Source of the DNA: an uncultured Pseudomonadota bacterium
Lineage (GTDB): Bacteria; Oederibacteriota; Muellerivitia; Muellerivitales; Muellerivitaceae
DNA length: 64,000 nt
NCBI GenBank assembly: GCA_963770835.1
Contig: CAVYRH010000004.1
Span: 644,764 to 708,763 of the forward strand
Reading direction: 5' to 3'
The notes below the pieces were generated by a model. That model was given only the letters and a program-made list of their open reading frames with translations. It was not told where the DNA came from and searched no databases. Position numbers and translations under genes: made by a program. Below are positions 15,150 to 61,381 of this stretch, in pieces. How positions within the stretch are numbered: position 1 is the first letter of the stretch; each line of letters begins with the position of its first letter.

Positions 15150-15159
15150 AGGGGGAAGC

Positions 15160-34541: not shown

Positions 34542-34696
34542 CGGGACCGGGAAAAACCGTCGATGGAGTTATTTCTTCCACGACTTCAGGAAAGAACCAC
34601 TACCATGTTCAAGGACGCAGGTTGAATTGTTGGATTACTGAATTGAAAGAAAGTTTTTCCAAAAACCCAACCTGCCGCAATCTTGACGGTTGAAAA

Positions 34697-35209: not shown

Positions 35210-35298
35210 TTTTTCCACCCTCCCCGTCGATTGTCGGCTTGGTGTCGACAAAGGACAATGATGCCCATTCATTAAACGAAATTTGTCCGGGAGGGAGT

Positions 35299-36576: not shown

Positions 36577-36607
36577 AAAAGGCGCATTCCAGGAAGGGGG
36601 GTAACCA

Positions 36608-37273
36608 ATGCATTCAACGGCGACTCTTGCTTTAAAACACTACACCCGCGAACAAGAAATGGCCAACGGCATGACCGCCGGCACCGGCGCGGTGCTGGCC
36701 GCCGCCGGGACGGCCCTCTTGGTCACGATGGCCTGCCTTAAAGGCAACGCCTGGCACATCGTGAGCTTTAGCGTCTACGGCGGGACGCTTTGCCTGCTCC
36801 ATCTCATCTCCACCCTTTACCACAGCCTTCCGCTGTCGAAAGCCAAGCGGGTTTTCGAGGTTTTCGACCATTCCTCCATTTTTCTCCTCATTGCCGGAAC
36901 CTATACGCCTTTCATGCTGGTGACGCTGCATGGGGCCTGGGGCTGGTCCCTGTTCGGCGTTGTTTGGGGGCTGGGGGTCGCCGGCATTCTATACAAGATT
37001 TTTTTTACCGGGCGGCACCAGCTTTTTTCCACAGCCCTCTATATAGGATTGGGTTGGATGGCGGTGGTGGCCTTCAAGCCCCTGTTGGCGGCCCTGCCGG
37101 TGGGCGGCGTTGTTTTGCTCGTGTTGGGCGGGGTCAGCTATAGCTTCGGGACTTTTTTTTACCACGCGAAAAAGCCTTATTACAGCCACGCTATTTGGCA
37201 CGTGTTCGTGCTGGCGGGAAGCCTTTTTCACTACTTCGCCATATTGATTTATGTGTTGCCCGAGAAGCCTTGA
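36608..37273 (+). CDS. Hemolysin III / PAQR family membrane protein
   Basis: EMANGMT, STLYHS, FDHSSIFLLIAGTYTPF, HAIWHVFVLAGSLFHY. Confidence 0.95.
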   Translation: MHSTATLALKHYTREQEMANGMTAGTGAVLAAAGTALLVTMACLKGNAWHIVSFSVYGGTLCLLHLISTLYHSLPLSKAKRVFEVFDHSSIFLLIAGTYTPFMLVTLHGAWGWSLFGVVWGLGVAGILYKIFFTGRHQLFSTALYIGLGWMAVVAFKPLLAALPVGGVVLLVLGGVSYSFGTFFYHAKKPYYSHAIWHVFVLAGSLFHYFAILIYVLPEKP

Positions 37274-37311
37274 GACAACTCCTCCTGTCCGTCTTTTAAG
37301 GTTTAGGCTTC

Positions 37312-37327
37312 TATGAGCCAGGTCATG
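37312..37327. promoter_or_regulatory. TATGA-N6-TCATA-like site
   Basis: TATGA GCCAGG TCATG; TAAGGT at 37350 (gap 22). Confidence 0.65.
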
Positions 37328-37595
37328 CTGACTCCACCCCCCCATGCCATAAGGTGGGGTGCGGTCAAGCATCGCCGGGGAAGATTTTTCCGGCTGCAGG
37401 GGCCCCGGGCTTTGCCCAGGGGCCTGCTTTTTACCCGGTCAGGGTTGCCACCCTGCCGCTGAAATGAAAGTCCGCTGAAGGTTCGCGGTGTTTGCCCGTT
37501 TCCTCCGGCCCATCCTTGAAGGGATTTGGGACGACTTTCCCGCCGAAGAAAATGCTTCCACCGTATCCGTGTCCATGATTTGAAAGGAAAGCTTC

Positions 37596-39224
37596 GTGCA
37601 AAATGCGCGCCTCCGTTGTTTGTTCGTTTATCCCCACTTTACATCCCAATCCTTCTGGAATTACCGGGCCACCTGCGAGGTGGTGGGCGCCAAGTACCCT
37701 GCCGCGCCCTTGGGGCTCATCACGGTGGCCGCCATGCTTCCCCCCGGCTGGGAGGTGAGGCTCGCCGATTTGAACGCCGAGGAATTGGATAGCCGGGACG
37801 TGGAATGGGCGGACATGGTTTTCCTGGGCGGCATGATCGCCCAACAGCCCGACCACCTGCACCTCATCGATTATTTCCGGTCCCTGGGAAAGACGGTGGT
37901 TGTCGGCGGCCCGGACGCCACTTCCAGCCCCCATCTTTACGACAAGGCGGATTACCTGGTGTTGGGCGAGGCGGAGATCACCATGTCCCAGTTCCTGGCC
38001 GATTATGAAAGGGGAACGGCCCGCCACCGTTACGACGCCGGGGAAGTGAAAGCCGCGATGGCCGACAGCCCCACGCCGCGGTTCGACCTTCTCAAATTCG
38101 AAAACTACCTCCATGTGGGCATCCAGTGGAACCGTGGCTGTCCCTTCATGTGCGAGTTCTGCGACATCATCGAACTGTTCGGCCGGGTTCCCCGCGGCAA
38201 AAGCGTCGAGCAGGTCCTCAATGAACTCCAGGCGCTTTACGACCTGGGGTACCGGGGCCACATCGACATCGTGGACGATAACTTTATCGGGAACAAAAAA
38301 GCGGTCAAGTTATTGCTGCCCCACCTCATCCAGTGGCTGAAGGACCACCGTTGGCCGTTTGAGTTCAGCACCGAAGCCTCCATGAACCTGGCCGACGACG
38401 AGGAGCTGATGGGGATGATGCAGGAAGCGGGGTTCAACTGGCTCTTCGTGGGCATCGAGAACCCCGACGAGGACACCCTGAAAGCCACCCAGAAGCGGCA
38501 GAACACCCACCGCTCCATCGCCGACAGCATCCACAAGATCATGAAGCACGGCATGATCGTGAACGCCGGCTACATCATGGGTTTCGACGGGGAAAAGGAG
38601 AATGTGGCCCAGTCCATCCTGGATAACATCGAGGCCACGGCCATCCCGGTCAACATGATCGGCCTTCTTTTCGCGCTGCCCAACACCCAGTTGACCCGGC
38701 GCCTGGAAAAGGAAGGGCGCCTGGACGCGAATTTCGAGGTCCCGCCGGACAAGACCGCCTGCCAGTGCGTGGCCGGGTTGAATTTCGCCACCATGCGTCC
38801 GCGGTTCAATATCCTCAAGGATTTCCGCCGCGTGGTCGAGGAAGCCTTCCGGCCCGAGAAATATTTCGGCAGGACCCTCCGGCTGGCCCTGATGCAGGAT
38901 TGCTCCCTCAAGCGGCTCAAGATTCCATTGAGGAACCAATTGCGGGATATCCGGTCCTTGTTCCGCCTGACCGGGCGGCTGGGGTTCAAGAAAAACATCC
39001 GCCTTCACTATTGGAAGGTCCTGCTAGTTTGCCTGTTCCGGAATCCCCGGGCGCTCCGTAACGCCGTGTCCTTGATCGCCCTCTACCTGCACTTCGAGAC
39101 TTTCCGGGACTTCGTGCTGGGTCGACTGGACGATGAGATGATCATATTAGAAAAAGAAGGGGATCCTCGCCGGTGGAAGCCAATTATTCAGGGATTTCCC
39201 GCGTTGGGGCCTCCCCCGATTTAA
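37596..39224 (+). CDS. B12-binding class B radical SAM protein (DUF4070 type)
   Basis: PLGLITVAAMLP, VVVGGPDAT, RGCPFMCEFCDI, VDDNFIGN, GIENPD, C-terminal DUF4070-like region; GTG start. Confidence 0.9.
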   Translation: MQNARLRCLFVYPHFTSQSFWNYRATCEVVGAKYPAAPLGLITVAAMLPPGWEVRLADLNAEELDSRDVEWADMVFLGGMIAQQPDHLHLIDYFRSLGKTVVVGGPDATSSPHLYDKADYLVLGEAEITMSQFLADYERGTARHRYDAGEVKAAMADSPTPRFDLLKFENYLHVGIQWNRGCPFMCEFCDIIELFGRVPRGKSVEQVLNELQALYDLGYRGHIDIVDDNFIGNKKAVKLLLPHLIQWLKDHRWPFEFSTEASMNLADDEELMGMMQEAGFNWLFVGIENPDEDTLKATQKRQNTHRSIADSIHKIMKHGMIVNAGYIMGFDGEKENVAQSILDNIEATAIPVNMIGLLFALPNTQLTRRLEKEGRLDANFEVPPDKTACQCVAGLNFATMRPRFNILKDFRRVVEEAFRPEKYFGRTLRLALMQDCSLKRLKIPLRNQLRDIRSLFRLTGRLGFKKNIRLHYWKVLLVCLFRNPRALRNAVSLIALYLHFETFRDFVLGRLDDEMIILEKEGDPRRWKPIIQGFPALGPPPI

Positions 39225-49086: not shown

Positions 49087-49313
49087 TCAGCTTAATCGAC
49101 CGGTTTGATAATCGGAAAAGGCTTGTTTCAGTTCGCCAAGCGTATTCATGACAAAAGGGCCGCCCCGGACAACGGGCTCATTCAATTTTGGGCCGACGCG
49201 AAAAGAAGATGGACTGGTTTTTCGCCCCCGGGCTGCAAACGAACGGAGTCGCCATCCCCAAAAACACCAAGGTGGCCCCCGGCAACGTCAGTTGGGAGGG
49301 GTCGGAATCCTCC
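49087..49313 (-). pseudogene. Pirin C-terminal remnant (5'-truncated, frameshifted)
   Basis: Minus strand VAGGHLGVFGDGDSVRLQPGGEKPVHLLFASAQ, frameshift near 49186-49190, then KLNEPVVRGGPFVMNTLGELKQAFSDYQTGRLS*; GPFVMNT is the pirin C-terminal signature; in-frame TAA at 49316-49314, no start. Confidence 0.75.
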
Positions 49314-49744
49314 TTAATTTAATTCGGAATTTCCATAGAAAATCAACAAAGTGATCGCGCCAATGGCGCTTGCAATAAGAGCGAGATTATTTTGGAATTT
49401 AGGACAGAAAAACAACAGAAAATTATTTTTTGATAAAAAATAAAATTAATTAGAATTTTGGCAACAATAATCTATTTAACTGGGGGTTTAACAGCCCTAA
49501 AGGCCTATTTCGTCATTGTTTTACCCTTTAATTGTTTCTAAATTATTAAAGCAAAACTGATTTTAGTCATCTTTCGTTTGTTGTCTTCGGTTTAAGGTTA
49601 ATCAGTTAACAAAATCGGGGCCGACATGTTCATTTCAATAGATGAAGATATATTCTTTGTGCACGGAAAAAGCCAGGACGTTAAATTCTCTATCATCATT
49701 TTTTGCCCAAATTGTTGCAGAATCGATTCCAAGGGGTGGTTGCC

Positions 49745-50965
49745 ATGAGAAGAGTGGCTGTTACAGGCTTGGGAGTCATCTCCCCACTTGGAGGGGACGT
49801 TGAAACGACCTGGAAAGCCATGGTGGAGGGAAAAATCGGGGTGGAAAAACTCCGACTCATCGATCCAACCCCTTACCGGGTGAAAGTCGGGGGGGAAATC
49901 AAGGATCGCAGCCGGATCGAGGTTTTTGAAAGAGAGCATGCCGGCAAGTATGAACGGTCGGCTGTTCTCTCCATCCTGGCGACGCAAGAAGCACTGGCTA
50001 AGGGAGGTTTGGCGCCCGCCGACCTGGAAAGCCAACGGTTAGGCAGCTTTTTTGGAACCACCATGGGGGAAGTCCAACTAGCCGAACGATTGTCCGCCGG
50101 CCAGGTTCAAAGCCCACCCGCGAAAATCGATCCCGGTAGTTTCCACAAAGTCCAGGGATCCCACATCGCTTTCTCCGTTTTGGATTACTTGGGCCTCGCG
50201 GGTCAAACCATGGTTTTCTGCAACGCCTGTGCCTCAGGCAATTACGCCATCGGGTGGGGTTTCGATCAGATCCGGCAAGGCTATTTGGACGTCGCTATTT
50301 GCGGCGGGGTCGATGCCTTCTCACGAGTGGCCTTCACGGGTTTTAACCGGCTGCTTTCCTTGACACCGGACAAATGTAAGCCTTTTTCCGCCAACCGAAA
50401 GGGGCTGGCAGTTAGCGAGGGCGTGGGTGTCCTTTTATTGGAGGATTTTGAAAAGGCCGAGGCGCGGGGCGTCCATGTTTACTGCGAGATCGCCGGTTAC
50501 GGCCTTGGAATGGACGCTTTCCACATGACTTCTCCCCATCCAGAGGGCATGGGTGCCTTTGAAAGCATCCAACGGGCCATGGCCCAGGCCAATATCAATC
50601 CCCAGGAAGTGGATTTCATTTCCGCCCACGGCACGGGAACCCCCGCCAACGATAAAACCGAATCCATCGCCATCAAAAAAATTTTCGGCCCAGACTGCCG
50701 GATCCCTGTTGATTCTATTAAGTCCATGATCGGCCATACCATGGGAGCCGCCAGCGCCATTGAGGCGGCCATGACCTCTCTTACCCTCGACCGCGGAATC
50801 CTTCTGCCAACCATGAACTGGGAGGTCGCCGATGAAAATTGCATCGCTGATTGCGTGCCGAACCAGTCCCGGCCGTTCAAAGGGCATTTGGCCCTGTCCA
50901 ATTCATTTGCTTTCGGCGGAAACACGTCCTGCCTGGTAATGACCAAGAAGGAAGAAACCCCATGA
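49745..50965 (+). CDS. fabF: Beta-ketoacyl-ACP synthase (FabF / KS-alpha type)
   Basis: RRVAVTGLG, catalytic Cys NACASG, AHGTGT, GHTMG, NSFAFGGN. Confidence 0.92.
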   Translation: MRRVAVTGLGVISPLGGDVETTWKAMVEGKIGVEKLRLIDPTPYRVKVGGEIKDRSRIEVFEREHAGKYERSAVLSILATQEALAKGGLAPADLESQRLGSFFGTTMGEVQLAERLSAGQVQSPPAKIDPGSFHKVQGSHIAFSVLDYLGLAGQTMVFCNACASGNYAIGWGFDQIRQGYLDVAICGGVDAFSRVAFTGFNRLLSLTPDKCKPFSANRKGLAVSEGVGVLLLEDFEKAEARGVHVYCEIAGYGLGMDAFHMTSPHPEGMGAFESIQRAMAQANINPQEVDFISAHGTGTPANDKTESIAIKKIFGPDCRIPVDSIKSMIGHTMGAASAIEAAMTSLTLDRGILLPTMNWEVADENCIADCVPNQSRPFKGHLALSNSFAFGGNTSCLVMTKKEETP

Positions 50966-51861
50966 GGCCCCTATTCCTCCTGCGAAAGGGAGAAGCCCTT
51001 CTGGGCCGGGACGGATTGACCCTGGATGTGCTGTCGGCGGAATTCAAAAAAACCTTCCCGCAGGAAGACCCACGGTACATCGACAACGTTTCCAAACTAG
51101 CCGGGATCGCGGCGAGCCGGGCTTGGGAAGGTGGGGACGAAGGGCTTAGCGGTGAATTCCGGAAGGATTTCGCAGTTATCGTGGGAAGCGCTTTTGGGGC
51201 TATCGACAGCACGGTGGATTTCGACGCTCTGGCCCTCCAAAAAGGCCCCAATGCGGTGAATCCCATGGATTTTCCCAATACGGTCGCGAACGCAGCGGGA
51301 AGCCGGATCGGGATATGGATGCAGCTCAAAGGGCCCAACGTGACCCTGACCAATGGAAGCACATCGTTCCTGGACGCAATCGGGTTCGGGCTCCAAGGAT
51401 ACAACAACGGACTTTTCCAGTATTGTTTAGTGGGAGCTGTAGATAAAATGCCGACTTTTCTCAAGCCTTTGGCGATTCGGGATTCCAAACTTCCCGAATT
51501 CTTGGAAGGGTCCTGTTTTTTCCTAGCCTCGGGTTCGGCGGAAGGGGAGACCCTGGGCCAAGTCACCGACTATTTCACACTCCAATTGAAGGCCGACCTC
51601 AGTCTTCCGCCAGCTTTTCTCCATCATTTTGAGGAACTCGGGGAAGGGGTAGAATGGCTAGGTTGTCCGGAGGGAACTCCGCTGGAATCCCATTTTCCTC
51701 AAAGAGTTATTCGTCACTTTCTGCCTTCGTCGTTCATGGAATTGGGATTGGGGGGCATGCAGTCCTTGAATACTTTTCTTAAATCCTCTTCTTCCTGTGG
51801 GGTGATTGCTGCTTTTTCAAAACCAGAAAGAAAAATGTCTTTCGTTAAAATTAAAAAATAA
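50962..51861 (+). CDS. Catalytically inactive KS / chain-length-factor-like protein
   Basis: FPNTVANAAGSRIGI...GPNVTLTNGSTSF (no Cys at the ACxS position); no catalytic His motifs; ATGA overlap with KS. Confidence 0.8.
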   Translation: MRPLFLLRKGEALLGRDGLTLDVLSAEFKKTFPQEDPRYIDNVSKLAGIAASRAWEGGDEGLSGEFRKDFAVIVGSAFGAIDSTVDFDALALQKGPNAVNPMDFPNTVANAAGSRIGIWMQLKGPNVTLTNGSTSFLDAIGFGLQGYNNGLFQYCLVGAVDKMPTFLKPLAIRDSKLPEFLEGSCFFLASGSAEGETLGQVTDYFTLQLKADLSLPPAFLHHFEELGEGVEWLGCPEGTPLESHFPQRVIRHFLPSSFMELGLGGMQSLNTFLKSSSSCGVIAAFSKPERKMSFVKIKK

Positions 51862-51877
51862 AAAGGAGTCTTTGAAA

Positions 51878-52123
51878 ATGGAAACCATCGAAATCAAATC
51901 AAAAATCAAGGAAATCATTGGAGAAATGTTCGAGGTCAAGCCGGTGGATATTCGAGATGACAATCCTTTCAACCAAATGGCCAATTACAATTCCATGCGA
52001 GCCTTGGAATTCTTAGCGAAACTGGAAACAGAATTCAACATCCTCATTGACCCGGATATGTTACCGAAGATGGTGTCGGTGGGAAAATCTACTCAGGTCG
52101 TCGAGGAACTTCTACGTGGCTAG
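51878..52123 (+). CDS. Acyl carrier protein
   Basis: AAGGAG RBS; 81 aa; NYNSMRALE (Ser attachment site), LETEFNI. Confidence 0.85.
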   Translation: METIEIKSKIKEIIGEMFEVKPVDIRDDNPFNQMANYNSMRALEFLAKLETEFNILIDPDMLPKMVSVGKSTQVVEELLRG

Positions 52124-52565
52124 TTCTTCTCCCGCGCCCGAAGTCCCGGTTTTAGACTTCTTAAAACAGCGGTTCCCCATCCTCATGGTGGATCGAGTCT
52201 TGTCCTATGAGAAGGGCCGGAAGATTCAGACCTTGAAAAACATTTCGGCAGATGAAATCCATTTCCAGGGGCATTTTCCAGGCTATCCTGTGTTTCCAGG
52301 AGTTTTAACCATCGAATGTTTTGCTCAAACGGCGGCTATTTTAATCCGTATGATTGACGGAGAATCACCCGGCGTGTTCGACGTGATCGGCTCGGTGATG
52401 GATTTCCGGTTTCTTCGACCACTTTTTCCCGGGGACCGGCTGGAAGTCTGGATGGAAATCACCAAGGCCGCCGGGACCAACCGTATCATCGAAGGAAAAG
52501 GTTTTGTGGGTGAAGAGATGGTGGCCTCCGGTAAATTCACATTTGGAAAGTTGGCGTTGCCATGA
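52116..52565 (+). CDS. fabZ: FabZ-type 3-hydroxyacyl-ACP dehydratase
   Basis: QRFPILMVDRV, FQGHFPGYPVFPGVLTIECFAQ, FLRPLFPGD; GTG 52116. Confidence 0.88.
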   Translation: MASSSPAPEVPVLDFLKQRFPILMVDRVLSYEKGRKIQTLKNISADEIHFQGHFPGYPVFPGVLTIECFAQTAAILIRMIDGESPGVFDVIGSVMDFRFLRPLFPGDRLEVWMEITKAAGTNRIIEGKGFVGEEMVASGKFTFGKLALP

Positions 52566-53281
52566 AAAAAGTCGTCGTCTCCGGGGGCTCTTCTGGAATC
52601 GGCAAAAGTCTGGTGACAATCTTCGCGGAGGCCGGGTGGAAGGTCCATTTTACCTTCCATTCCAACGAATCCGCGGCGCGGGAGATCGAAAAGAGTTTTG
52701 AGGGAAAGGCTAAGGCCCACCAGCTGGACGTCGGCGATCGGGAGGCTTGCGACGTATTCTGCAAGGAAGTTCTGGGCGAGGAAAAAAGCATCGACGTTCT
52801 TATAAATAATGCCGGCATTACCAGGGACAAGCCGCTGTTTTCCATGCAAGATTCAGACTGGTCCGACGTGCTCCAAACGAATCTTTCGGGGGTTTTCCAT
52901 CTCACCCGGCGGTTCGCCCTGGATATGTTGAAAAAGAAGAAAGGGCGCATTATCAATATCTCCTCCATCTCCGGTATCCATGGACTCCCGGGTCAAACCA
53001 ATTACTCCGCCTCCAAAGCCGGAATCATTGGTTTTACCAAAGCCCTCGCTAAGGAAACGGGGCCCTTCGGCGTAACAGCCAACGTTGTTGCGCCTGGCGG
53101 GGTTATGACGCCCATGATTGAGATACTGGCACCGCAAGCCAGGGAAGTCCTCCTGCGAACCGTTCCCGTGCACCGCTTTTGCGAACCTCGCGAAGTGGCT
53201 CAGGTTGTTTTTTTTCTAGCTGAGGGGGCCCCGGATTATTTAAACGGAAGTGTTATTGTCCTCGACGGTGGGGCAGGTTGA
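52562..53281 (+). CDS. fabG: FabG-type 3-oxoacyl-ACP reductase
   Basis: SGGSSGIG, LINNAGITRD, YSASKAG, NVVAPG. Confidence 0.92.
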   Translation: MKKVVVSGGSSGIGKSLVTIFAEAGWKVHFTFHSNESAAREIEKSFEGKAKAHQLDVGDREACDVFCKEVLGEEKSIDVLINNAGITRDKPLFSMQDSDWSDVLQTNLSGVFHLTRRFALDMLKKKKGRIINISSISGIHGLPGQTNYSASKAGIIGFTKALAKETGPFGVTANVVAPGGVMTPMIEILAPQAREVLLRTVPVHRFCEPREVAQVVFFLAEGAPDYLNGSVIVLDGGAG

Positions 53282-54096
53282 GGATGGGAAAAAACAGAAA
53301 GACTTGGCCATGGAAAGCGGGAGAAGGATTTGGACGGTTGGAACCGGATGAAATCCACATCCACCTTCTTCGAGCCGGATGCGGGAATTCGCGGTCTTTA
53401 GTTAAGGCCCTCCTTTCTTTTTTGCCGGCCGCGGAACGATGGCGTTACGCGCAGTTTGACTTTGAAGACCAACGGCGGCAGTTTTTGTGGTCCCGGTTAT
53501 TGGCGCGCCTTGTTTTGTCTTCTTCTTTGGACAAGGATATGCGGGATATAACCTTTAGCCATTTGGACAACGGGAAGCCCTTCCTGGAAGATTCGGAAGT
53601 CCAATTCAACCTTTCCCATACGGAAGGTCTTATCGCCTGTTCCGTGGCCCGGCGGAGATTGGGGATCGACGTCGAAAAGATGGCAGGAGGGGAGAAAGAA
53701 GAAAAGCGTTGGAACCTTTTGGCCGAACGTTATTTTTCAGAGGCCGAAAGGGAATTCCTCTTTTCGCGGGATCAAGCTTCGCAATCAGACGCTTTTTTCC
53801 GGATTTTTACAATGAAGGAGGCCAGGGTCAAGGCAAGTGGGGAGGGTTTATCCCTTCTCCGCGCGGATCTTTCAGTCCCTTTACCAACACGGGAAAAATC
53901 GGCTGTTGACTCTTGGGAATACCTCACGAAACGCCTAGAACCGGGCGACATCTTTTTGGCCCATGCCGTGGAAAACCCGAACCTGACGCCGTTGGACTAT
54001 CGGTTTTGGGAATGGGACGAAGTTTCCCTGGGAAACTTTTTAAACAATCGAATTTCGGGTCCATTTGAAGGAATTCATGGCAATCTCTACAGGTAA
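53278..54096 (+). CDS. Sfp-type 4'-phosphopantetheinyl transferase
   Basis: NGKPFL, FNLSHT, LGIDVE, FFRIFTMKEARVKASGEGL. Confidence 0.9.
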   Translation: MRMGKNRKTWPWKAGEGFGRLEPDEIHIHLLRAGCGNSRSLVKALLSFLPAAERWRYAQFDFEDQRRQFLWSRLLARLVLSSSLDKDMRDITFSHLDNGKPFLEDSEVQFNLSHTEGLIACSVARRRLGIDVEKMAGGEKEEKRWNLLAERYFSEAEREFLFSRDQASQSDAFFRIFTMKEARVKASGEGLSLLRADLSVPLPTREKSAVDSWEYLTKRLEPGDIFLAHAVENPNLTPLDYRFWEWDEVSLGNFLNNRISGPFEGIHGNLYR

Positions 54097-55492
54097 AGAT
54101 ACTTTTATCCTCTGTCGTAACAGCCAAGGCACGGAGTTCCGCGCCACGCTTCTTCGATTGACGCGGTACACGGTAGTTTTCGAGGTTTACAACCCCTACA
54201 GCATTCTCCAGCTGTCCGAGGTTTTAACCGACTTCCGCATGATTATGAACGACCGCATGGTTTATTCCGGACGGGCTGTCGTCAGTAACCTCGTTAACAC
54301 CGGTATATTATTGGTTTGCGAATGCACTTTGGAGGACAGCTGGCTGGACGTAGATTTATTTACTTCCATCCACCAAAAAGACAAACTTAAGAACGAATTC
54401 GTAGAATTTTTAAAGGAATGGGATAAGATCCATTTCGTGACCGACAAGTTCAAGGTGGTTACGGCGGATATGCAAACCTTCCTCATGGACATGCGGCGCT
54501 GGCTGGAACAAGTGGAACTCAGTATCCGATCCGAACCCTCGGGCGACCGGAATGAAATCGAACGAGACGCCATTCAGGAATTGAAAAATCCCGTTACGCC
54601 GGCTGTGAGTTCCTTGTTCGAGCGGTTCGAGGAAATATCCATCCATGTGCCAGACGATTTGCAATCAATCCATCGCAACTACAGCCGGCGGCAGATACAT
54701 CCCATTATTCTTTGTTCGCCATTCGTTTACCGTAGTTTCCAAAAGCCATTGGGATACGCCGGGGATTATGAAATGGTGAACATGATGCTGGGGGACCCAT
54801 TGCAGGGAGGCTCCCTCTTCGCCAAGATTGTCAATTTTTGGTTTGTCAACGCCCCGCCTTGCGAGGCTCACCGTAACCGCATTAAGCACTTGGTAGGAAG
54901 GCTGGTGGAGGAAACCGAAAGAGTGGCCAGGGATAAAAAAATTGCCCGCGTTTTAGACATGGCCTGTGGGCCAGCCCGGGAAGTTCAGGAATTCCTGACC
55001 CACGAGGAGATTTGCAACAAAGCCCAATTTGAATTATTGGATTTCAACGATGAAACGCTGGAATTCACCGGAAAGACGCTGGAAGATTTAAAAAAACGAC
55101 ACCACCGGATTACTCCGATCTTCATGAACAAAAAATCAGTTAATCACATCCTCAAGGAAACATTTAAGCCATCGAACCCCTTGCCGGAAGACGCTTATGA
55201 TTTTATTTACTGTGCTGGCCTGTTTGACTACTTGGAAGACCGTATTTGCAAGAAACTCATGGATTATTTTTACGAGCGTTTGGCGCCGGGAGGGCTTTTG
55301 CTGGCCACCAACGTGACCCCTTCCAACCCTTTCAAGAATGTCATGGAAAGCTTCATGGAATGGCATTTGATCTACCGGAATGAACAGCAGATGACAGTTA
55401 TTCAGCCCCAAGCTGCGCCGGAGGAGGCCTGTACAATTCGGACCGAAGTCACAGGCATTAATGTTTTTCTTGAGGTGCGGAAACCCAAATGA
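54077..55492 (+). CDS. phcB: PhcB-like SAM-dependent methyltransferase (fatty-acid methyl-ester signal synthase family)
   Basis: SPFVYRSFQKPLGYAGDYEMVN, EAHRNRI, VLDMACGPAREV, IYCAGLFDYL, FMEWHLIYR; immediately followed by two kinase genes; ATG 54077. Confidence 0.8.
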   Translation: MAISTGKDTFILCRNSQGTEFRATLLRLTRYTVVFEVYNPYSILQLSEVLTDFRMIMNDRMVYSGRAVVSNLVNTGILLVCECTLEDSWLDVDLFTSIHQKDKLKNEFVEFLKEWDKIHFVTDKFKVVTADMQTFLMDMRRWLEQVELSIRSEPSGDRNEIERDAIQELKNPVTPAVSSLFERFEEISIHVPDDLQSIHRNYSRRQIHPIILCSPFVYRSFQKPLGYAGDYEMVNMMLGDPLQGGSLFAKIVNFWFVNAPPCEAHRNRIKHLVGRLVEETERVARDKKIARVLDMACGPAREVQEFLTHEEICNKAQFELLDFNDETLEFTGKTLEDLKKRHHRITPIFMNKKSVNHILKETFKPSNPLPEDAYDFIYCAGLFDYLEDRICKKLMDYFYERLAPGGLLLATNVTPSNPFKNVMESFMEWHLIYRNEQQMTVIQPQAAPEEACTIRTEVTGINVFLEVRKPK

Positions 55493-58161
55493 GCCTAGAT
55501 CTTTTAAAGAGTCAACTCGACATTAAAACGGCCTTCCAGAAATACGATAAAGAGCAAAAATTGCGTCTTTACAAGCTGGCCTGTTGGTTCACGGCCTTCG
55601 GAATGCCAGGGGGGATGTCCCTGGACATGAATATTTATCCCGCTGACGTCCCCCACTTTTTAAAACTTCGCCTTCTTTCTTCAGTGTTGGCGCTTATTCT
55701 CCTGGGATTTTTTTATACTTCACTGGGATTGAGGTATTACCGGATTCTTTGTTTTATCCTTCCCCTGATCCCCCAGGGTTTTATCAGCTGGATGATTTAC
55801 ACCACAGAAGGGTCGGTTTCACCTTATTACGCGGGTTTAAGCCTGATACTTCTGGCTTTTTGCCTGTTGTTACCCTGGAGTTTCCAAGAGACCCTTTTCT
55901 TGTCCCTTGCCACAATCGGTTTTTACCTGGCCGCCTGCTTGGCTCATGGAAACATCTCTTTCCACGGTATCTTTTTCAGCAACCTATATTTCCTGAGCAT
56001 GACCGCCCTTTTCGCCACTATTGGCAGTTATTTCACCAGCCGCCTACGCGTGCGGGAATTCATCGCGCGATTTGAATTGGATCAGAATAAAAGAATGCTC
56101 GAAGAGTCAAATCGTAAATTGGTAGAACTGGACAAAATGAAAAGCCGGTTTTTCGCCAACATCAGCCATGAACTTCGTACTCCCCTCACCCTCCTCATTG
56201 CCCCCTTGGAAACGCTCCAAAGGGAAAAAGGCCATTTGTTCGACGAGGAAACAAGAAACACTTTCAAAATCATGCAGGACAATGCTATGCGGTTATTGAA
56301 GCTCATCAACGACCTTTTGGACTTGGTGAAACTGGAGTCAGGACGCATGGAGGTGCGGAAGGAACCATTAAAGGTGAGAGAATTCATCAAGGGGCTGACC
56401 CTAGCCGTGCAAGGCGCGGCGAAGGACAAGAAAGTCTTGCTTTCCACCCACGTGGACGAAAAGTTGGAGACCATCTTGGCCGATCGGGACAAGTTGGAGA
56501 AGATCATTTTGAACCTGCTTTTTAATTCCGTGAAATTCACTCCGTCAGGGGGAAGAATAGATATTTCGGCTAAAGGGGAGAATGGGTGGTTTTTCCTTCA
56601 GGTGAAGGATACGGGTATGGGCATTTCCGAGGAAAACCTGCCCCACATTTTCGACCGATTCTGGCAGGCGGACTCTTCCGCCCAGCGCAAATACCAGGGA
56701 ACGGGTATCGGTCTTTCCTTGGTCCGGGAACTGGTCGAAGTCCAGGGCGGGACGGTGATGGTCGAAAGCCAGTTGGGGAAGGGCACGACGATGACCGTGA
56801 AAATCCCGCTGGAGAGGGTTCTAGAAGTCCCTCGGGAGAAGGTGGATTCGACCGGCTCACCGGTGGTTGAAGAACCCGCCAAGGCGCAGGTGGCCGAATG
56901 GCTGGAAAAACTCTACCGGAGGGCCGAGCTTTTCCCGGCCATGACGCCAGTGGCCGCCACGTTGCACCAAGATCAGTTTGGAAGAGGCAAAAAACCAAAG
57001 GTTCTTGTTGCGGATGACGAGCCGGACATGCTGAAGTTCTTAAAGTCCCAATTGGAGAAATACTACGAGGTTGTGGAAGCCGTCGATGGAAACCAAGCGG
57101 TTGAAAAAGCCAAACAATTTCTCCCGGACCTCGTTTTACTCGACATGATGATGCCAGGTAAGGACGGCATCCAGGCCTGCCGGGAATTGAAGGAACAGGT
57201 TTCCACAAAATCCATACCCGTCATTCTTTTGACGGCCCGGGCCGATGAGGATACCAAGTTTTCCGCCCTCGATGCAGGGGCAAGCGATTTCTTGACAAAA
57301 CCCTTTTCCACCACCGAATTGCATGTCCGGATTAAAAACTTGATGGAGTCCCACCAATTTCAACGGGATTTGGCCCGTCAAAAAAGTGCACTAGAATCGA
57401 CACTCGAGCAGTTGAAGGAAACGGAAGGACAACTGGTTCAAAACGAAAAGATGGCTTCCCTTGGGCGGCTCAGTGCGGGTATCATCCACGAAATCAACAA
57501 TCCCCTGAATTATGCGGCCCAGGCCCTCTATCTGCTCAAAACTAAAAAAGACCGTATACCGGAAGAGGACCGGGCCAAATACGTTGAAATCGTTTCGGAT
57601 ATCGAAGAGGGAGTGGGAAGGGTCCAACGGATCGTTTCCGACCTTCGAACATTCAGCCACCCGCACATGGGCGGGGGGACGGATCTCATCGAGTTGGAAG
57701 AGGTTGTTTCCACGGCCCTGCGTCTCTTGGGGCATGAGTTGAACGACGGAATTCAATTGGAAGTGAACGTGCCGAAAGAGGAACAGGTTCAAGCGGACCG
57801 GAACAAACTGATCCATGTTCTCGTGAACCTCCTCCAAAACTCGATGGATGCACTCAAAGAAAAAAAATTCGAGGACGGGGAAAAGCCCCTTTTGTCCATC
57901 CGAAGCCAAGCGGACGAAAGCAAGGTATGGGTGAGCATCCAGGACAACGGCACTGGCATCGACCCGGAGAACATGAACAAGATTTTCGATCCCTTCTTTA
58001 CCACCAAGGACGTGGGGCAAGGAATGGGGTTGGGCTTGAGCATCTGCTACCGAATCATGAACGAGCAAGGCGGCAACATCTCGGTCAAGAGTGAAAAAGG
58101 TAAATTCACCGAATTTACCTTGGAATTGCCGGTGAAGGATCCGCCACAAAAGCGTTTTTAA
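55489..58161 (+). CDS. Membrane hybrid histidine kinase TM-HK-REC-HK (PhcS plus PhcR-like fusion)
   Basis: ~6 N-terminal TM helices; FANISHELRTPL, DTGMGI, GTGIGL; VLVADDEPD...LLDMMMP; GIIHEINNPL, DNGTGI, GMGLGL. Confidence 0.9.
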   Translation: MSLDLLKSQLDIKTAFQKYDKEQKLRLYKLACWFTAFGMPGGMSLDMNIYPADVPHFLKLRLLSSVLALILLGFFYTSLGLRYYRILCFILPLIPQGFISWMIYTTEGSVSPYYAGLSLILLAFCLLLPWSFQETLFLSLATIGFYLAACLAHGNISFHGIFFSNLYFLSMTALFATIGSYFTSRLRVREFIARFELDQNKRMLEESNRKLVELDKMKSRFFANISHELRTPLTLLIAPLETLQREKGHLFDEETRNTFKIMQDNAMRLLKLINDLLDLVKLESGRMEVRKEPLKVREFIKGLTLAVQGAAKDKKVLLSTHVDEKLETILADRDKLEKIILNLLFNSVKFTPSGGRIDISAKGENGWFFLQVKDTGMGISEENLPHIFDRFWQADSSAQRKYQGTGIGLSLVRELVEVQGGTVMVESQLGKGTTMTVKIPLERVLEVPREKVDSTGSPVVEEPAKAQVAEWLEKLYRRAELFPAMTPVAATLHQDQFGRGKKPKVLVADDEPDMLKFLKSQLEKYYEVVEAVDGNQAVEKAKQFLPDLVLLDMMMPGKDGIQACRELKEQVSTKSIPVILLTARADEDTKFSALDAGASDFLTKPFSTTELHVRIKNLMESHQFQRDLARQKSALESTLEQLKETEGQLVQNEKMASLGRLSAGIIHEINNPLNYAAQALYLLKTKKDRIPEEDRAKYVEIVSDIEEGVGRVQRIVSDLRTFSHPHMGGGTDLIELEEVVSTALRLLGHELNDGIQLEVNVPKEEQVQADRNKLIHVLVNLLQNSMDALKEKKFEDGEKPLLSIRSQADESKVWVSIQDNGTGIDPENMNKIFDPFFTTKDVGQGMGLGLSICYRIMNEQGGNISVKSEKGKFTEFTLELPVKDPPQKRF

Positions 58162-58171
58162 GGAGACTGTC

Positions 58172-59434
58172 ATGGAATCTTTTTATGACTATAAAAAGTT
58201 TTATATCCTTTACGTGGATGACGAGGAAAAATCCCTTAAGTATTTCCGGGAGACCTTCGGGGAAAAATTCGCTATTTTAACGGCTTCCAACGCGGAGGAA
58301 GGGTTCCGGATTTTAAAGGAACATCAAGACAGGACTGCCGTTTTGCTCACAGACCAGCGCATGCCAGGAGAGAAGGGAATCCAACTCTTAGAAAAGGCAA
58401 GGCAATTGAAACCCCGGATCCTCAGGATTTTGGTAACCGCTTATTCGGACCTGGACACCGCCATCGACTCCGTCAATACGGGTGCCATTTACAAATACGT
58501 GACCAAACCTTGGGACGTGCCCCAGTTGGAAGTTACCTTAAAAAGGGCCGTGGAGTTTTTTATTGTTCAATCCGAGAGGGACCATCTGCTGATGGAAAAA
58601 ATGTCCGTTCTTTATAATGTCATGCTAACCGACCGTATCTTGAGCTTGGGAATCTTGGCAATGGGCCTAAGCCACCATATCCGTAATTCCATGGTAGCGG
58701 TCAAAACTTTCCTCGACTTGACGCCTAAAAAAATGGAAGAAGAAAATCTTAATTTGGAGCAGCTCCGGAATCCTGATTTCTGGAAGGATTACTACCAAAA
58801 GGTTCAGGCCCAGATGGATAAGGTAGTTAACCTCTTGAGCGATTTATGGGGATCCTCAGAAAAACCTATGGTTGATCTTTCCGATAAGGTCCAATTGCGT
58901 CAAGTCGTTGAGGAAGCTCTCGGACAAGTGAGAGAGGATTTGGAAAAAAAGGGAATTACCGCGGAAAATCTCATACCAGCGGCCCTTCCCGAATTAAAGG
59001 TCGAGCGAAAGAAATTCCAACGTTTATTCGAGATGTTGTTAAGGGATGAAGCGGCCACTCTTTCCAAGGGCGGAAAATTGAAGTTTACTGCGGCCACCAT
59101 TGGGCCCAAGGAAGGGCCTGCCGAAATCCAAGTGGAATTGGAGGACAATGGGCCTGAATTGCAACAAGACGCCTTGCGAGCCCTTTTTGACCCGTTTTTT
59201 ACGCGGAGCGGAAGCCCTCAGGAATTCGGTATTTATTTGATGACTTGTTTTTTCATCGTTTATCACCATGGGGGCCGAATCTCCGCCAAAAGTCTAGGAG
59301 GCCGAGGCAACGTTTTCACCCTCACTTTTCCTTTGAATCCCCAGATCAAGACCTCGTTGGCCGAAGAAAAAGATTTTATGAGTAAAATATTGATCAACGA
59401 ATCCTTGTGGGAAAAATTGCTGGCCGGAAGCTAA
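58172..59434 (+). CDS. REC plus degenerate histidine-kinase domain protein (PhcQ-like)
   Basis: ILYVDDE, LLTDQRMPG, VTKPWD; GLSHHIRNSM, DNGPEL, LFDPFFT, G2 box degenerate (EFGIYL). Confidence 0.85.
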   Translation: MESFYDYKKFYILYVDDEEKSLKYFRETFGEKFAILTASNAEEGFRILKEHQDRTAVLLTDQRMPGEKGIQLLEKARQLKPRILRILVTAYSDLDTAIDSVNTGAIYKYVTKPWDVPQLEVTLKRAVEFFIVQSERDHLLMEKMSVLYNVMLTDRILSLGILAMGLSHHIRNSMVAVKTFLDLTPKKMEEENLNLEQLRNPDFWKDYYQKVQAQMDKVVNLLSDLWGSSEKPMVDLSDKVQLRQVVEEALGQVREDLEKKGITAENLIPAALPELKVERKKFQRLFEMLLRDEAATLSKGGKLKFTAATIGPKEGPAEIQVELEDNGPELQQDALRALFDPFFTRSGSPQEFGIYLMTCFFIVYHHGGRISAKSLGGRGNVFTLTFPLNPQIKTSLAEEKDFMSKILINESLWEKLLAGS

Positions 59435-59571
59435 GGATGCTTTGATGTTCCTAGCAGCAGGTCGCGAAACAAACCGTTCGACGGCCTCCTCCATCTTCGC
59501 CACTATTTTCCCGTTTAACCAAATCGATATTCCGGCAATCTTTCGCCTCCAATGGGAATTTTGGTGCGATC

Positions 59572-60705
59572 ATGAATAGGATCAAAATACTTCAAAGCCT
59601 TTACCAGCTGTTTCCGGATAAGGCCCAGGACGATTTTAATTTTTCCTCCGTTGAAAAATTCCTTCAACAAAGTTTTGGTTTGCGAAAGGCATTGTTCCTC
59701 TTTCGAGAAACGGACGGCTTAAAAACGCCGGATGGCAAGAATCCTTTCAAGCCACTAGTGCAAAAAGAAATCTTGAAGCATTTCAAACGGGCTCCCATTC
59801 CGTGGGTTTGCCCACGCACGACACATTTCCCATGGCTTGGTTTCTGGCCAGTGAAGACGGGAGGGAAGTGGATTGGTTGTTACGCTTTGGGAGAAAAGCT
59901 CAATGAGAACGGTTTGAGCGAGGAGGATGCACAATTAATGGAGCTTTTGGCAGACCGGACAGGGTTATACCTGGAGGCGAATCGCCTTTGGGGATTCTTG
60001 GAAAGGGTTGACCGTCAATCCACGCTTGGTTTTCTGTCCGCCGCGATGATCCACGAAATCCGAAATCCCCTTACGGCTTTAAGCGCGCTTGCTCAGTTGT
60101 TGCCTCGCAAGAAAACCGATAGTGTTTTCTTGGAATCCTTTGAAAGGTTGATGCTGCGGGAAACAGCGCGGTTGACCGACTTAACGGAAAATTTTTTGGG
60201 ATTTTTAAAACCCACCGGAAAAGATGCTGTCCGAATCGACTTTACAGGGATGGTGGGACAAACAACGGATCTTTTGAGGCCCCTCTTCGTCATGAAGCGG
60301 GTTCGGTTGAAGGTGAATAATTCGGCGGGACTTTATTTAATGGGCGATGTGAATCAAATCAAAAGCTTGATTTTGAATTTGTCCCAAAATGCTTTTGAGT
60401 CCGCAGGTTCACGGGGAACCGTGGATATTTCAACAACTTGGATGCCCCATTCGGTCCGCGGGTCCGGGCCATGGGTTGAATTTAAAGTAAAAAACAGCGG
60501 AACCGGCATTTTGAAGGAAGACTTGGATAAAGTTTTTACCCCTTACTTTTCAACAAAGGAGAGAGGGACGGGATTGGGGTTGGCCATCTGTCAAAAAATT
60601 GTGGACAATCACCAGGGTGTCATTAAGCCATCCTCCTCAAACCGAAGCACGGTATTTCAAGTGTTTCTTCCCGCCCTTTCCAAAAACATGGGAAAAAGCC
60701 TTTAG
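59572..60705 (+). CDS. Cytoplasmic sensor histidine kinase
   Basis: GAF-like N-terminus; MIHEIRNPL, NLSQNA, NSGTGI, FTPYFSTK, GTGLGL. Confidence 0.88.
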   Translation: MNRIKILQSLYQLFPDKAQDDFNFSSVEKFLQQSFGLRKALFLFRETDGLKTPDGKNPFKPLVQKEILKHFKRAPIPWVCPRTTHFPWLGFWPVKTGGKWIGCYALGEKLNENGLSEEDAQLMELLADRTGLYLEANRLWGFLERVDRQSTLGFLSAAMIHEIRNPLTALSALAQLLPRKKTDSVFLESFERLMLRETARLTDLTENFLGFLKPTGKDAVRIDFTGMVGQTTDLLRPLFVMKRVRLKVNNSAGLYLMGDVNQIKSLILNLSQNAFESAGSRGTVDISTTWMPHSVRGSGPWVEFKVKNSGTGILKEDLDKVFTPYFSTKERGTGLGLAICQKIVDNHQGVIKPSSSNRSTVFQVFLPALSKNMGKSL

Positions 60706-60796
60706 AATCAATACTAAATTCAATTAGAATTTTTCGTACGATTCCTGGTTTTTTGGTATTTTATTAGTGTCCAAGTCGTTAACTTTGGAAGGTTAT

Positions 60797-61381
60797 ATGC
60801 CATTTAAAACCGGTTCAATCCTCATCATGGAGGACGACGTTCCTTTTCGCGACCACTTAAAAGGTATTTGCGCTGGAATTGGCAAACCATGGGTCGTCGG
60901 AAAAACCGAGGATGCCTTGGCCCTGCTCCTCCAGCAGCCTTTTCAACTTTTACTTTTGAACTGGAATTTGATCCAATTGGATCCTTCCGCTTTTGAAATG
61001 GCCATCAACAATTTCCAATCAGGCGCCAACCGAATGGCTTTGTTTAAGTTTCCCAAATTAGTCCCGGTTATTGCGGCTATGAAATCCGGAATGAGTGATG
61101 TCCTTTGGCCGGGTCAGGATACGGAGGCTTTAAAAGAGAAAATTATGGATTCCCTTAATCAAACAAAACCGGCATTGATTACACATTCATTTGTTTCCCA
61201 GTTGGCGGAATCCGTAACCGATAAGGCCATCGAGGAAAAAATTTCCTTTTTCAAAGCCCGGAAAGAATTTTCTAAAACTTTTCTTTATCAAATCATCGGC
61301 CGTCGAAAAATGCGCCGTTCACAATTAGCCGGCCTGATGGGCGTCAGTACCCGCACCTTGCACCGCTATTTGTCGGCCTAA
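60797..61381 (+). CDS. Atypical (pseudo-)receiver with C-terminal Fis-like HTH
   Basis: ILIMEDD; phospho-acceptor position reads LLLLNWN (Asn); C-terminal RSQLAGLMGVSTRTLHRYL. Confidence 0.7.
   Translation: MPFKTGSILIMEDDVPFRDHLKGICAGIGKPWVVGKTEDALALLLQQPFQLLLLNWNLIQLDPSAFEMAINNFQSGANRMALFKFPKLVPVIAAMKSGMSDVLWPGQDTEALKEKIMDSLNQTKPALITHSFVSQLAESVTDKAIEEKISFFKARKEFSKTFLYQIIGRRKMRRSQLAGLMGVSTRTLHRYLSA

Follow-up and report, generated by a model that had tools for sequence, protein, structure and literature searches.

Why should the gene for a putative signal-making methyltransferase stand in one tightly packed row with genes for building an acyl chain? The question is raised by a locus of an uncultured soil bacterium, found in a 64,000-nucleotide stretch of DNA (here called the window; contig CAVYRH010000004.1 of GenBank assembly GCA_963770835.1, positions 644,764 to 708,763 of the forward strand) at window positions 49745 to 59434. 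A first-pass annotation, made by a model from the letters and their open reading frames (ORFs), had read the locus as a PhcB-type quorum-sensing module fused to its own fatty acid or polyketide assembly line. Our comparisons lead us to a reading that we hold with slightly better than even confidence: the locus would be a Phc-like synthase-sensor module with a private synthase of the type that pairs a ketosynthase with a chain length factor (KS/CLF), in which a specialized acyl chain becomes a methyl ester that is sensed by a membrane kinase with a MASE8 domain.

A nine-gene block joins an acyl-chain cassette to a methyltransferase and two kinases

The locus consists of nine codirectional ORFs on the + strand (49745-59434), and all the ORFs, overlaps, and gaps listed in the first-pass annotation were verified. 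The first six genes form a synthase cassette. It opens with an active, FabF-like beta-ketoacyl-acyl carrier protein (ACP) synthase, the KS (49745-50965; 406 amino acids, or aa; ATG start, TGA stop), which shares an ATGA overlap with a Cys-less, CLF-like KS partner (50962-51861; 299 aa). After a 16-nucleotide (nt) gap come a dedicated ACP (51878-52123; 81 aa), a FabZ-type 3-hydroxyacyl-ACP dehydratase (DH; 52116-52565; 149 aa, GTG start) that overlaps the ACP gene by 8 nt, a FabG-type 3-ketoacyl-ACP reductase (KR; 52562-53281; 239 aa) joined to the DH gene by a second ATGA overlap, and an Sfp/HetI-type 4'-phosphopantetheinyl transferase (PPTase; 53278-54096; 272 aa, TTG start) with a 4-nt overlap with the KR gene. 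A 20-nt overlap connects the PPTase gene to that of a PhcB-family S-adenosylmethionine (SAM)-dependent methyltransferase (MT; 54077-55492; 471 aa), the stop of which lies in a 4-nt overlap with the gene for a membrane hybrid kinase (55489-58161; 890 aa). The block ends, after a 10-nt gap, with a REC-DHp-CA histidine kinase of the PhcR/LvrB type (Rec-HK; 58172-59434; 420 aa).

Searches with Pfam and NCBIfam returned the domain set that had been read from the letters, from the active KS, its Cys-less partner, ACP, DH, KR, and PPTase to the MT and two kinase/receiver proteins, and agreed that the block holds no enoyl reductase (ER), FabD, or FabH. Thioesterase, acyltransferase, and exporter genes were likewise absent from the block in these searches, as was FabI. 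Gene lengths agreed with those of homologues (406, 299, ~82, ~150, 239, ~260, 471, ~885, and 420 aa). The same nine-gene order was found in nine other fetched loci (seven complete and two partial: L002, L003, L005, L006, L031, and L084-L087 in our numbering) and on contig P0033. Since the order recurs in loci whose flanking genes vary, the arrangement is not due to chance.

The methyltransferase is PhcB-like over its full length

More than 5,500 relatives of the MT were detectable in a large protein collection. Many of the closest ones carry the JGI label 'extracellular factor (EF) 3-hydroxypalmitic acid methyl ester biosynthesis protein', which we take to be the KEGG definition of phcB. Aligned with a Cupriavidus necator protein (P0306), the MT was 39% identical over 467 aa with six gap positions (E = 2e-116). 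A tblastn search of plasmids gave one full-length relative, on pPHS1_P of Paraburkholderia graminis (39% identity, 98% coverage). In that plasmid operon, the MT gene precedes those of a 445-aa kinase and of response regulators, the same layout as in phcBSRQ. The P. graminis protein is itself 68 to 69% identical to the C. necator and C. basilensis proteins and shares 89% identity with a P. ribeironis protein annotated 'Regulatory protein', and Cupriavidus carries a phc cluster (PMC10653808).

Identity to the betaproteobacterial PhcB-like clade as a whole was 35 to 39% over the full length. A 51-sequence alignment of both clades contained 79 invariant columns, which are spread over the barrel, helical, and Rossmann parts of the protein. 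Judged by these alignments, the MT is a PhcB-family member over its full length. In a neighbor-joining (NJ) tree, the MT and its nearest relatives formed a clade apart from the betaproteobacterial proteins, and the enzyme is thus best called PhcB-like rather than orthologous to the Ralstonia protein. The PhcB-like assignment, for which the first-pass annotation had named phylogeny as the check, stands in this form: full-length identity of 39% to the Cupriavidus and P. graminis proteins, in a separate clade within the family.

The AlphaFold2 (AF2) model of the MT (pLDDT 85.5) comprises a beta-barrel (residues 9-85), a helical bundle (95-285), and a Rossmann methyltransferase domain (290-468); Pfam limits the class I SAM-methyltransferase domain to aa 275-440. 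A PDB sequence search with the MT gave nothing below E = 0.04. Foldseek with the model returned generic class I methyltransferases only, with 3ocj as the best, and the likeness was limited to the Rossmann part. A PilZ-like reading of the N-terminal barrel was rejected, as its RNSQG motif does not fit the PilZ (D/N)xSxxG.

The kinases match PhcS-like and PhcR-like proteins

The 890-aa kinase is built from a MASE8-like transmembrane (TM) sensor, a HisKA/HATPase module, a REC domain, and a second HisKA/HATPase module, and its phosphosite His and Asp are present. Its MASE8 match (aa 46-196) is below threshold here and above threshold in homologues. The whole length of the MASE8 profile is matched by the sensor of the 890-aa kinase and also by that of the PhcS-like kinase from P. 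graminis. The two proteins are 28% identical over 446 aa, including the TM region (IPQGFISWMIYTTEGSVSPYYAGLSL versus LPQAMISWMIYVTQGEQSLFYAGLTL, for example; the TM sensor spans aa 18-190), and the core of the PhcS-like kinase is closest to the second kinase module of the 890-aa protein (35% over 287 aa). As both sensor and second core align in this way, the 890-aa protein is a PhcS-type sensor into which an extra kinase module and a receiver have been inserted. This fusion of a PhcS-type sensor to extra kinase and receiver modules, as the alignments present it, is an addition to the first-pass annotation.

The 420-aa Rec-HK has a REC domain followed by HisKA/HATPase, with Asp and His present. 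A 344-aa regulator from the phc-like operon of P. graminis shares 38% identity with this protein over the REC domain and linker. The Rec-HK class is described in a 2026 structural study of Leptospira LvrB, which names PhcR as the plant-pathogen prototype of the class and solves the activation mechanism for LvrB (PMC13269768). No PhcQ-like or PhcA-like LysR genes were found among the ORFs scanned on the two sides of the block (43.8-49.3 kb and 59.6-63.6 kb).

The triad is widespread and the cassette is confined to one clade

To place the MT in a wider range of bacteria, one genome per GTDB species was scanned with the MT alignment. At least 587 species genomes, mostly of Verrucomicrobiota, contained a relative, and the best 80 relatives were fetched. 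The four closest named relatives (L004, L006, L011, and L031; 61 to 76% identity) are from metagenome-assembled genomes of 'candidate division FCPU426', which makes this phylum the probable source of the window. Most of the other fetched relatives belong to Verrucomicrobiota (Prosthecobacter, Limisphaerales, Chthoniobacterales, and strain DG1235). The 890-aa kinase and the Rec-HK follow directly after the MT in 58 of the 64 loci with enough downstream sequence; the remaining six also have both kinase genes, with an inserted gene or split matches. Where 6.5 kb or more of upstream sequence was available (54 loci), the KS/CLF cassette was present in only three loci, all of them FCPU426-like.

Viewed from the cassette, the association was complete in the loci sampled. 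The MT stands in line with the cassette in all nine other fetched cassette loci and on the P0033 contig, and both kinases are present in all six cassette loci that reach far enough downstream (L002, L006, L031, and L084-L086). Many longer contigs with a partner gene were equal in length to contigs with an MT match. The co-occurrence of cassette, MT, and kinases, on which the proposal of the first-pass annotation depended, was therefore seen throughout the sample: no cassette locus was without the MT. The order, inspected in L002, L005, L006, L031, L084, L085, L086/L087, and the P0033 contig, is KS, partner, ACP, DH, KR, PPTase, MT, kinase, and Rec-HK, with a second short-chain dehydrogenase/reductase (SDR) and a flavin adenine dinucleotide (FAD) oxidoreductase as optional genes, in that sequence, between the PPTase and the MT (in L006 the oxidoreductase comes after the MT).

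In an NJ tree of 126 MTs rooted on the betaproteobacterial clade, all 27 cassette-linked MTs formed one clade, and no cassette-less MTs fell inside it. Its nearest outgroups (L088, L089, L090, and the P0043 contig) are all without a cassette. Their flanks match those of the cassette-bearing L084 and P0033 contig: genes for PAP2, peptidase M3, a 156-aa ORF, and a PDDEXK nuclease upstream of the triad and a HEAT-repeat gene downstream. On this tree and these flanks, the triad of MT and two kinases is the ancestral, widespread unit. The simplest history consistent with the comparisons is a single insertion of the cassette between the promoter region of the triad and the MT gene, after which the whole block would have moved to new genomic sites, including that in the window. 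This history, an old and widespread triad with a single later cassette insertion in one sublineage as far as gene trees can tell, likewise goes beyond the first-pass annotation.

DNA in front of the block fits this order of events. A candidate operator/promoter element, TTAAGGTTAA (49592-49601, + strand), with the motif TTAA(N)GG(N)TTAA lies ~150 nt before the KS gene and is the single match to the motif in the window. Across 90 loci the motif had 11 matches, 8 of them 37 to 200 nt upstream of the first operon gene (L031:4627-4638; L088:8925-8936; L089:7052-7063 and 7116-7125; L090:8904-8915 and 8964-8973; L011:385-396). In L031 the gene that follows is the KS; in L011, L088, L089, and L090, which have no cassette, it is the MT. 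In some loci a CCGACCAACT..CTTTTTTAAG box accompanies the motif, and the DNA after the PDDEXK gene keeps both boxes whether the KS (L031 and L084) or the MT (L088-L090) comes next. The TTAA(N)GG(N)TTAA element may be an operator.

Optional genes vary around this core. Basal relatives of the cassette have a gene for an FAD-dependent amine-oxidase/CrtI-like protein (~515 aa), a second SDR gene, or both beside the MT gene (L084:13108-14655; L086:13161-13925 and 13950-15491; L005 near 7307; L006 near 11437; L031 near 9181). These tailoring genes lie between the PPTase and MT genes or between the MT and kinase genes; in L006 the FAD enzyme is in the latter place. The window, L002, and L085 have lost both the FAD oxidoreductase and the second SDR. 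From this gene content, the product probably differs between sublineages. Among the cassette-less sisters, a cytochrome P450 gene (L089:12502-13848) or a GT2 glycosyltransferase gene (L090:14420-15550) stands directly after the Rec-HK on the same strand, and these may be alternative tailoring or output genes.

The fetched triad loci, mostly from Verrucomicrobiota, include L007-L083 (for example, L040:8225-9823 and L047:3415-4257). A gene for a FadL/TodX outer-membrane transporter was present in 41 fetched loci of the Verrucomicrobiota type, mostly directly upstream of the MT gene, which fits a hydrophobic compound that crosses the envelope. About 15 of these loci also have a LuxR-type (REC plus GerE) response regulator. 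A distribution survey places the phc cluster only in Betaproteobacteria (PMC10653808), and the open-access literature that we searched contained no description of a Phc-type system in Verrucomicrobiota or related phyla.

Sensor and methyltransferase domains are conserved together in the cassette clade

Domain identities were compared among 7 cassette-bearing, 3 sister, and 12 Verrucomicrobiota loci. The cytoplasmic signaling domains were as alike within the cassette clade as between the clade and its sisters (first kinase module, 0.67 in both comparisons; internal receiver, 0.78 and 0.76; Rec-HK receiver, 0.79 and 0.83). The sensor and the catalytic domains of the MT were more conserved within the clade: 0.54 within the clade versus 0.40 between clade and sisters for the MASE8 sensor, 0.70 versus 0.59 for the MT helical domain, and 0.65 versus 0.56 for the MT Rossmann domain. 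Such extra conservation of sensor and MT is the pattern to expect of a clade with a single distinct ligand in common.

The same parts could also belong to a circuit that serves no cell-to-cell signaling. The methyl ester, or some other methylated lipid, would then be an envelope or metabolic product, and the MASE8 kinase would monitor the state of the membrane or its lipids as part of a homeostasis or stress response. MASE8 is a generic membrane sensor domain with a weak match here, quorum-sensing function is known only for the betaproteobacterial clade (35 to 39% identical), and no output regulator was identified. We nevertheless find such a circuit distinctly unlikely. The order of synthase, sensor, and Rec-HK genes is the phcBSR order, the sensor is homologous to the PhcS-like sensor, and most of the 41 loci link the triad to a FadL-type channel that passes hydrophobic compounds. 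The sensor is, moreover, the fastest-evolving domain (0.35 to 0.54 identity), as expected of signal-specific receptors.

The cassette has the composition of a minimal highly reducing type II polyketide synthase

Both KS domains were found in the KS (Pfam), which scored 363 bits against FabF equivalog models with a cutoff of 493.75 bits (NCBIfam). Its best PDB match was 9s5h_B (355 bits), followed by FabFs (271 bits) and Iga11 (6kxd_A; 256 bits), and its Cys-His-His triad is intact (motifs CNACASG, AHGTGT, and IGHTMG). The partner gave a partial KS_N domain only (Pfam) and has Ser at the catalytic Cys position (NGSTS versus NACAS). Among 30 aligned homologues this column holds S, G, E, A, D, or P, a variability that marks the position as noncatalytic.

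The AF2 model of the partner (pLDDT 86, pTM 0.86) has a complete but compact thiolase fold. With Foldseek it matched FabFs at a query TM score (TMq) of 0.69 to 0.78, and the targets best covered were the shortened CLFs Iga12 and AntE (target TM score, TMt, of 0.63). In sequence its best PDB match was 9s5h_C (75 bits), and the motif GPN.VNPMDFPNTV.NA..SR is common to the partner family and 9s5h. The family is narrow. Among 5.8 billion proteins we found ~66 relatives at 46% identity or more, followed by a gap to generic FabFs, and an exhaustive profile search of 1.84 billion cluster representatives gave one full-length representative and fragments. By these searches the family is confined to the cassette clade. 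The next-nearest proteins are unnamed KS-like proteins of 320 to 370 aa (100 to 138 bits), for which NCBIfam gave no specific names.

The ACP has a PP-binding domain (Pfam) with its Ser in a YNSM motif and scored under all housekeeping ACP cutoffs of NCBIfam (31.7 versus 70.45 bits). The DH has a FabA-like domain (Pfam) with the His and Glu motif present. It just passes the FabZ model NF000582 (116.8 bits; cutoff, 113), stays below TIGR01750 (111.9 versus 155), and matches an ApeI-like model weakly (18.8 versus 28.5 bits); its PDB matches are FabZ and anammox amxFabZ-type entries (the amxFabZ identity is our own reading). The KR contains adh_short and KR domains and scored 234.8 against FabG subfamily NF009466 (cutoff, 222) and 259 against the equivalog TIGR01830 (cutoff, 297.75). 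The PPTase, with ACPS and AASDHPPT_N domains (Pfam), is HetI-like at a score under the NCBIfam cutoff and is the least conserved gene of the block (33 to 47% identity between loci).

Taken as a set, KS, inactive partner, ACP, KR, and DH without an ER make up a minimal highly reducing type II polyketide synthase (PKS). The sole NMO/FabK-family ORF of the window (32058-33509) lies 16 kb off and scored 36 bits to FabK versus a cutoff of 453. A housekeeping fatty acid synthase (FAS) lying beside an unrelated two-component system was rejected because equivalog cutoffs were missed. It is further ruled out by the private PPTase and CLF and by the maintenance of the block as a unit across genomic contexts.

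A block without FabH, another starter enzyme, or a thioesterase could also be primed in the manner of BioC. In that scheme the MT would methylate the free carboxyl of malonyl-ACP formed on the dedicated ACP, and the KS/CLF-KR-DH set would elongate this methyl-capped primer to an omega-methyl-ester dicarboxylate instead of an ester at C1. BioC provides the precedent for a class I methyltransferase that acts on malonyl-ACP. We regard this scheme as highly improbable. The MT is ancestral to the cassette and has been kept without it in hundreds of genomes; it lies in the PhcB family and matches no BioC model in Pfam or NCBIfam, and a KS/inactive-KS heterodimer can prime itself by decarboxylation.

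Proposed mechanism and the evidence for a private signal

In the synthase-sensor reading that we prefer, the Sfp-type PPTase would activate the dedicated ACP, and the housekeeping FabD of the cell would load malonyl groups. If the Iga, Ant, and 9s5h pairs are a guide, the KS would join its Cys-less partner in a KS/CLF-type heterodimer that sets chain length. It would prime itself by decarboxylating malonyl-ACP, so that no FabH is needed. The FabG-like KR and FabZ-like DH would process each beta-keto group. As the block has no ER, the chain would carry conjugated double bonds, as do the products of highly reducing type II PKSs, or the host FabI would saturate it, and its final cycle would then end at the 3-hydroxy stage, as for the Ralstonia signals. 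An unsaturated chain seems the likeliest outcome, if short of an even chance; a saturated or 3-hydroxy chain is somewhat less likely, and some other chemistry unlikely. The MT, predicted to be the sole enzyme in the block able to act on the carboxyl end, would convert the acyl product to a volatile or diffusible methyl ester, which the 890-aa kinase (the PhcS homologue) would sense through its MASE8-type membrane domain. Phosphate would pass from the internal receiver of this kinase to the Rec-HK (PhcR/LvrB type) and on to the output, and the operon probably feeds back on itself via the conserved upstream element.

Whether the cassette feeds the MT is the step on which this proposal turns. The overlapping stop and start codons, including those at the PPTase-MT-kinase junctions, support it through translational coupling, and no other enzyme of the block is fit to release or transfer the acyl chain. 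The cassette could instead be a regulated output of the module, for example, the source of a pigment or membrane component. It would then make a separate lipid or polyene, cotranscribed under autoinduction, and the MT would make the signal out of fatty acids of primary metabolism. The triad works in sister lineages that have no cassette at all, and the cassette was inserted downstream of the promoter region of the triad itself, both of which suit an output. So does the fact that KS/CLF, KR, and DH sets without an ER make polyene pigments or lipids in the Iga and aryl-polyene (APE) systems, of which Iga11 and Iga12 are structural relatives of the proteins here. On balance we find an output unlikely, since genes to release, transfer, or export such a product are absent from the block (a thioesterase, acyltransferase, glycosyltransferase, or LolA/MMPL-type protein, as in APE clusters). 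The tailoring genes of relatives are interleaved with the MT, the catalytic domains of the MT and the sensor share their extra conservation in the cassette clade, and the cassette was not seen apart from the MT in any sampled locus, all of which support the feeding of the MT by the cassette.

Several points weigh against a private signal made by the cassette. A signal synthase can be cotranscribed with output genes under its control, as in luxICDABE, and operon linkage alone is therefore no proof that the cassette feeds the MT. The triad appears to work without the cassette in sister genomes, which suggests that the cassette is dispensable for signaling as such, and the window cassette is, by its gene content, a reduced form relative to the basal members. 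The domain coconservation comes from 7 versus 3 genomes and counts as supporting evidence only. No DNA-binding output or PhcA-like LysR gene was present among the neighborhood ORFs scanned (43.8-49.3 and 59.6-63.6 kb); in Ralstonia, phcA lies outside the phcBSRQ operon, which makes its absence from this neighborhood weak evidence. The tie of the MT to PhcB of R. solanacearum (WP_011002642.1) is, in terms of sequence, an indirect one, through the P. graminis and Cupriavidus homologues. Finally, the block has no thioesterase to free an acid. PMC7912708 says only that the PhcB signal is made 'from the cognate fatty acids', and the substrate of PhcB may be a free acid or an acyl-ACP.

Implications

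If the private synthase makes the signal, the locus is a natural case of a quorum-sensing-type synthase/receptor pair that has gained a dedicated carbon-chain factory. It would show a route by which a lineage can privatize its signal channel, with the cassette-less sisters as a built-in evolutionary control. The Phc paradigm would extend from a few relatives of plant pathogens to at least 587 GTDB species genomes, including those of abundant soil and freshwater Verrucomicrobiota. The locus would also provide a defined ligand with which to study Rec-controlled kinases and MASE8, a sensor domain about which little is understood. With its own PPTase, the compact, self-contained nine-gene operon would be suited to heterologous expression and to the discovery of new lipid methyl esters. 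The spread of the bare triad beyond Betaproteobacteria is of separate interest, since the survey of phc distribution places the cluster only in that class (PMC10653808).

A broader proposal, which we advance tentatively and consider rather doubtful in its full extent, is that Phc-type lipid-ester signaling is no specialty of Betaproteobacteria and serves Verrucomicrobiota and related uncultured phyla as a major means of communication. A single sublineage of FCPU426 would then have added a private KS/CLF synthase and with it a new class of autoinducer (an unsaturated/polyene or otherwise non-FAS acyl methyl ester), whose receptor coevolved with the synthase.

Neighborhood of the block

Two genes downstream on the same strand are tentatively associated with the block. 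The first (59572-60705, + strand) encodes an extra soluble histidine kinase of 377 aa with HisKA and HATPase domains (Pfam). It is kept downstream of the block in L002 only (62% identity) and stands upstream in L006 (44%); as few relatives keep it, it lies outside the conserved block. The second (60767-61381, + strand) encodes a 204-aa protein with a weak REC match, in which Asn replaces Asp at the phosphoacceptor position (LLLLNWN), and several weak matches to a C-terminal helix-turn-helix. Homologues of this pseudo-receiver protein were found in L002 (63%), L006 (32%), and L086 (33%, on the opposite strand), and from its domains it could be a candidate DNA-binding output of the module. The pair of 377-aa kinase and 204-aa protein is common only to some relatives (L002, L006, and L086).

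Upstream, the AT-rich spacer before the operon contains the remnant of a pirin gene (49093-49295, - strand). It corresponds to only the C-terminal ~70 residues of an intact 281-aa pirin at the same position in L002, to which it is 81% and 57% identical in two frames. Scans of 48.5 to 62 kb for promoter and terminator consensus sequences gave counts equal to those in shuffled sequence and leave the operon limits uninformed. The window has no tRNA genes or Rfam families. The GC content of the block is 50.3%, compared with 57.2% for 2 to 44 kb and with 50.1% and 47.0% in the two flanks of the block. From 44 kb to the end of the window it is 46 to 53%, in a low-GC stretch that takes in the operon and both flanks. 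Horizontal transfer was considered on this basis and dropped: since the low GC runs on into both flanks, it is not diagnostic.

Farther upstream, an ORF with a FecR domain (21959-22948) precedes a 375-aa ORF (22945-24072) and a 2301-aa ORF (24069-30974), neither of which has a Pfam match at 1e-5. The region 32058-39224 encodes NMO/FabK-family, radical SAM, TrhA/hemolysin-III, and B12-binding radical SAM (DUF4070) proteins. The last of these is weakly like a 'lipid biosynthesis B12/radical SAM' model (73 versus a cutoff of 360 bits). A cytochrome oxidase gene set parts this region from the operon.

Comparison with known systems

The KS and its partner have their best matches in 9s5h_B and 9s5h_C, which probably brings the cassette close to anammox 'Cluster I' (amxFabF2/amxFabFmut-amxACP-amxFabZ), a set of putative ladderane lipid genes. 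The entry 9s5h is most probably the anammox amxFabF2/amxFabFmut heterodimer, as indicated by its molecule names, its two chains of ~412 aa, and the Val at the Cys position; no text tying the entry to the anammox preprint turned up in the literature searched. That heterodimer is described as acting as a KS/CLF that starts synthesis by decarboxylating malonyl-ACP (bioRxiv 10.64898/2026.05.19.726425). If the analogy holds, the absence of FabH from the block is explained. The anammox partner differs in being full length (~412 aa versus 299 aa in the window), and the anammox cluster has radical SAM genes and is without an MT or kinases. In the window, radical SAM genes are 10 to 14 kb off, beyond the cytochrome oxidase operon. 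A ladderane-type cluster was rejected, as none of the fetched cassette loci has a radical SAM gene within or next to the block.

In the kinases, the Lvr phosphorelay of pathogenic Leptospira (LvrA and LvrB) offers the same architecture, in which a hybrid kinase that contains two kinase modules plus an internal receiver stands ahead of a REC-DHp-CA kinase. The LvrA model was the top NCBIfam match of the 890-aa protein, but the scores stay far below cutoff (301.6 versus 1200 for LvrA; 40.8 versus 500 for LvrB), so that the resemblance is architectural only. The LvrA match starts at query residue 196 and leaves the MASE8-like sensor outside. We know of no linked MT in Leptospira.

The cassette resembles the highly reducing type II PKSs of ishigamide (Iga10-16) and aryl-polyene (Ape) synthesis in its pairing of an active KS with an inactive partner, in its discrete ACP, and in having KR and DH but no ER. 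The window KS scored 256 bits to Iga11, and the predicted structure of the partner covers Iga12 and AntE best. In contrast to these systems, the window partner has just 299 aa and belongs to a narrow family of its own, the scores of the DH and KR come near those of housekeeping FabZ and FabG, and the cassette is embedded in a signaling operon. The block is without aryl-starter, acyltransferase, LolA/MMPL export, or amide-forming genes. A scan of 49745-61381 and the equivalent blocks of L002 and L084-L086 gave no Ape-type aryl starter, acyltransferase or glycosyltransferase, or LolA/MMPL domains.

The closest parallel is the Phc system itself, the operon of which is described in the literature simply as phcBSRQ. 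The window operon adds a six-gene cassette, and none is present in the phc-like operon of P. graminis; the first-pass annotation, too, knew of no such cassette in phcBSRQ. Its PhcS-type sensor is fused to an extra HisKA/HATPase and REC in one 890-aa protein, and among the ORFs scanned beside the operon there was no PhcQ or PhcA (LysR) gene. The host, too, probably belongs to another phylum (the FCPU426/Verrucomicrobiota clade), whereas phc has been described as restricted to Betaproteobacteria (PMC10653808). In spite of these differences, the two systems share the order of signal synthase, membrane sensor kinase, and Rec-controlled kinase, with an MT that is a full-length homologue (39% identity), a homologous sensor, and a third gene with the Rec-HK architecture of PhcR.

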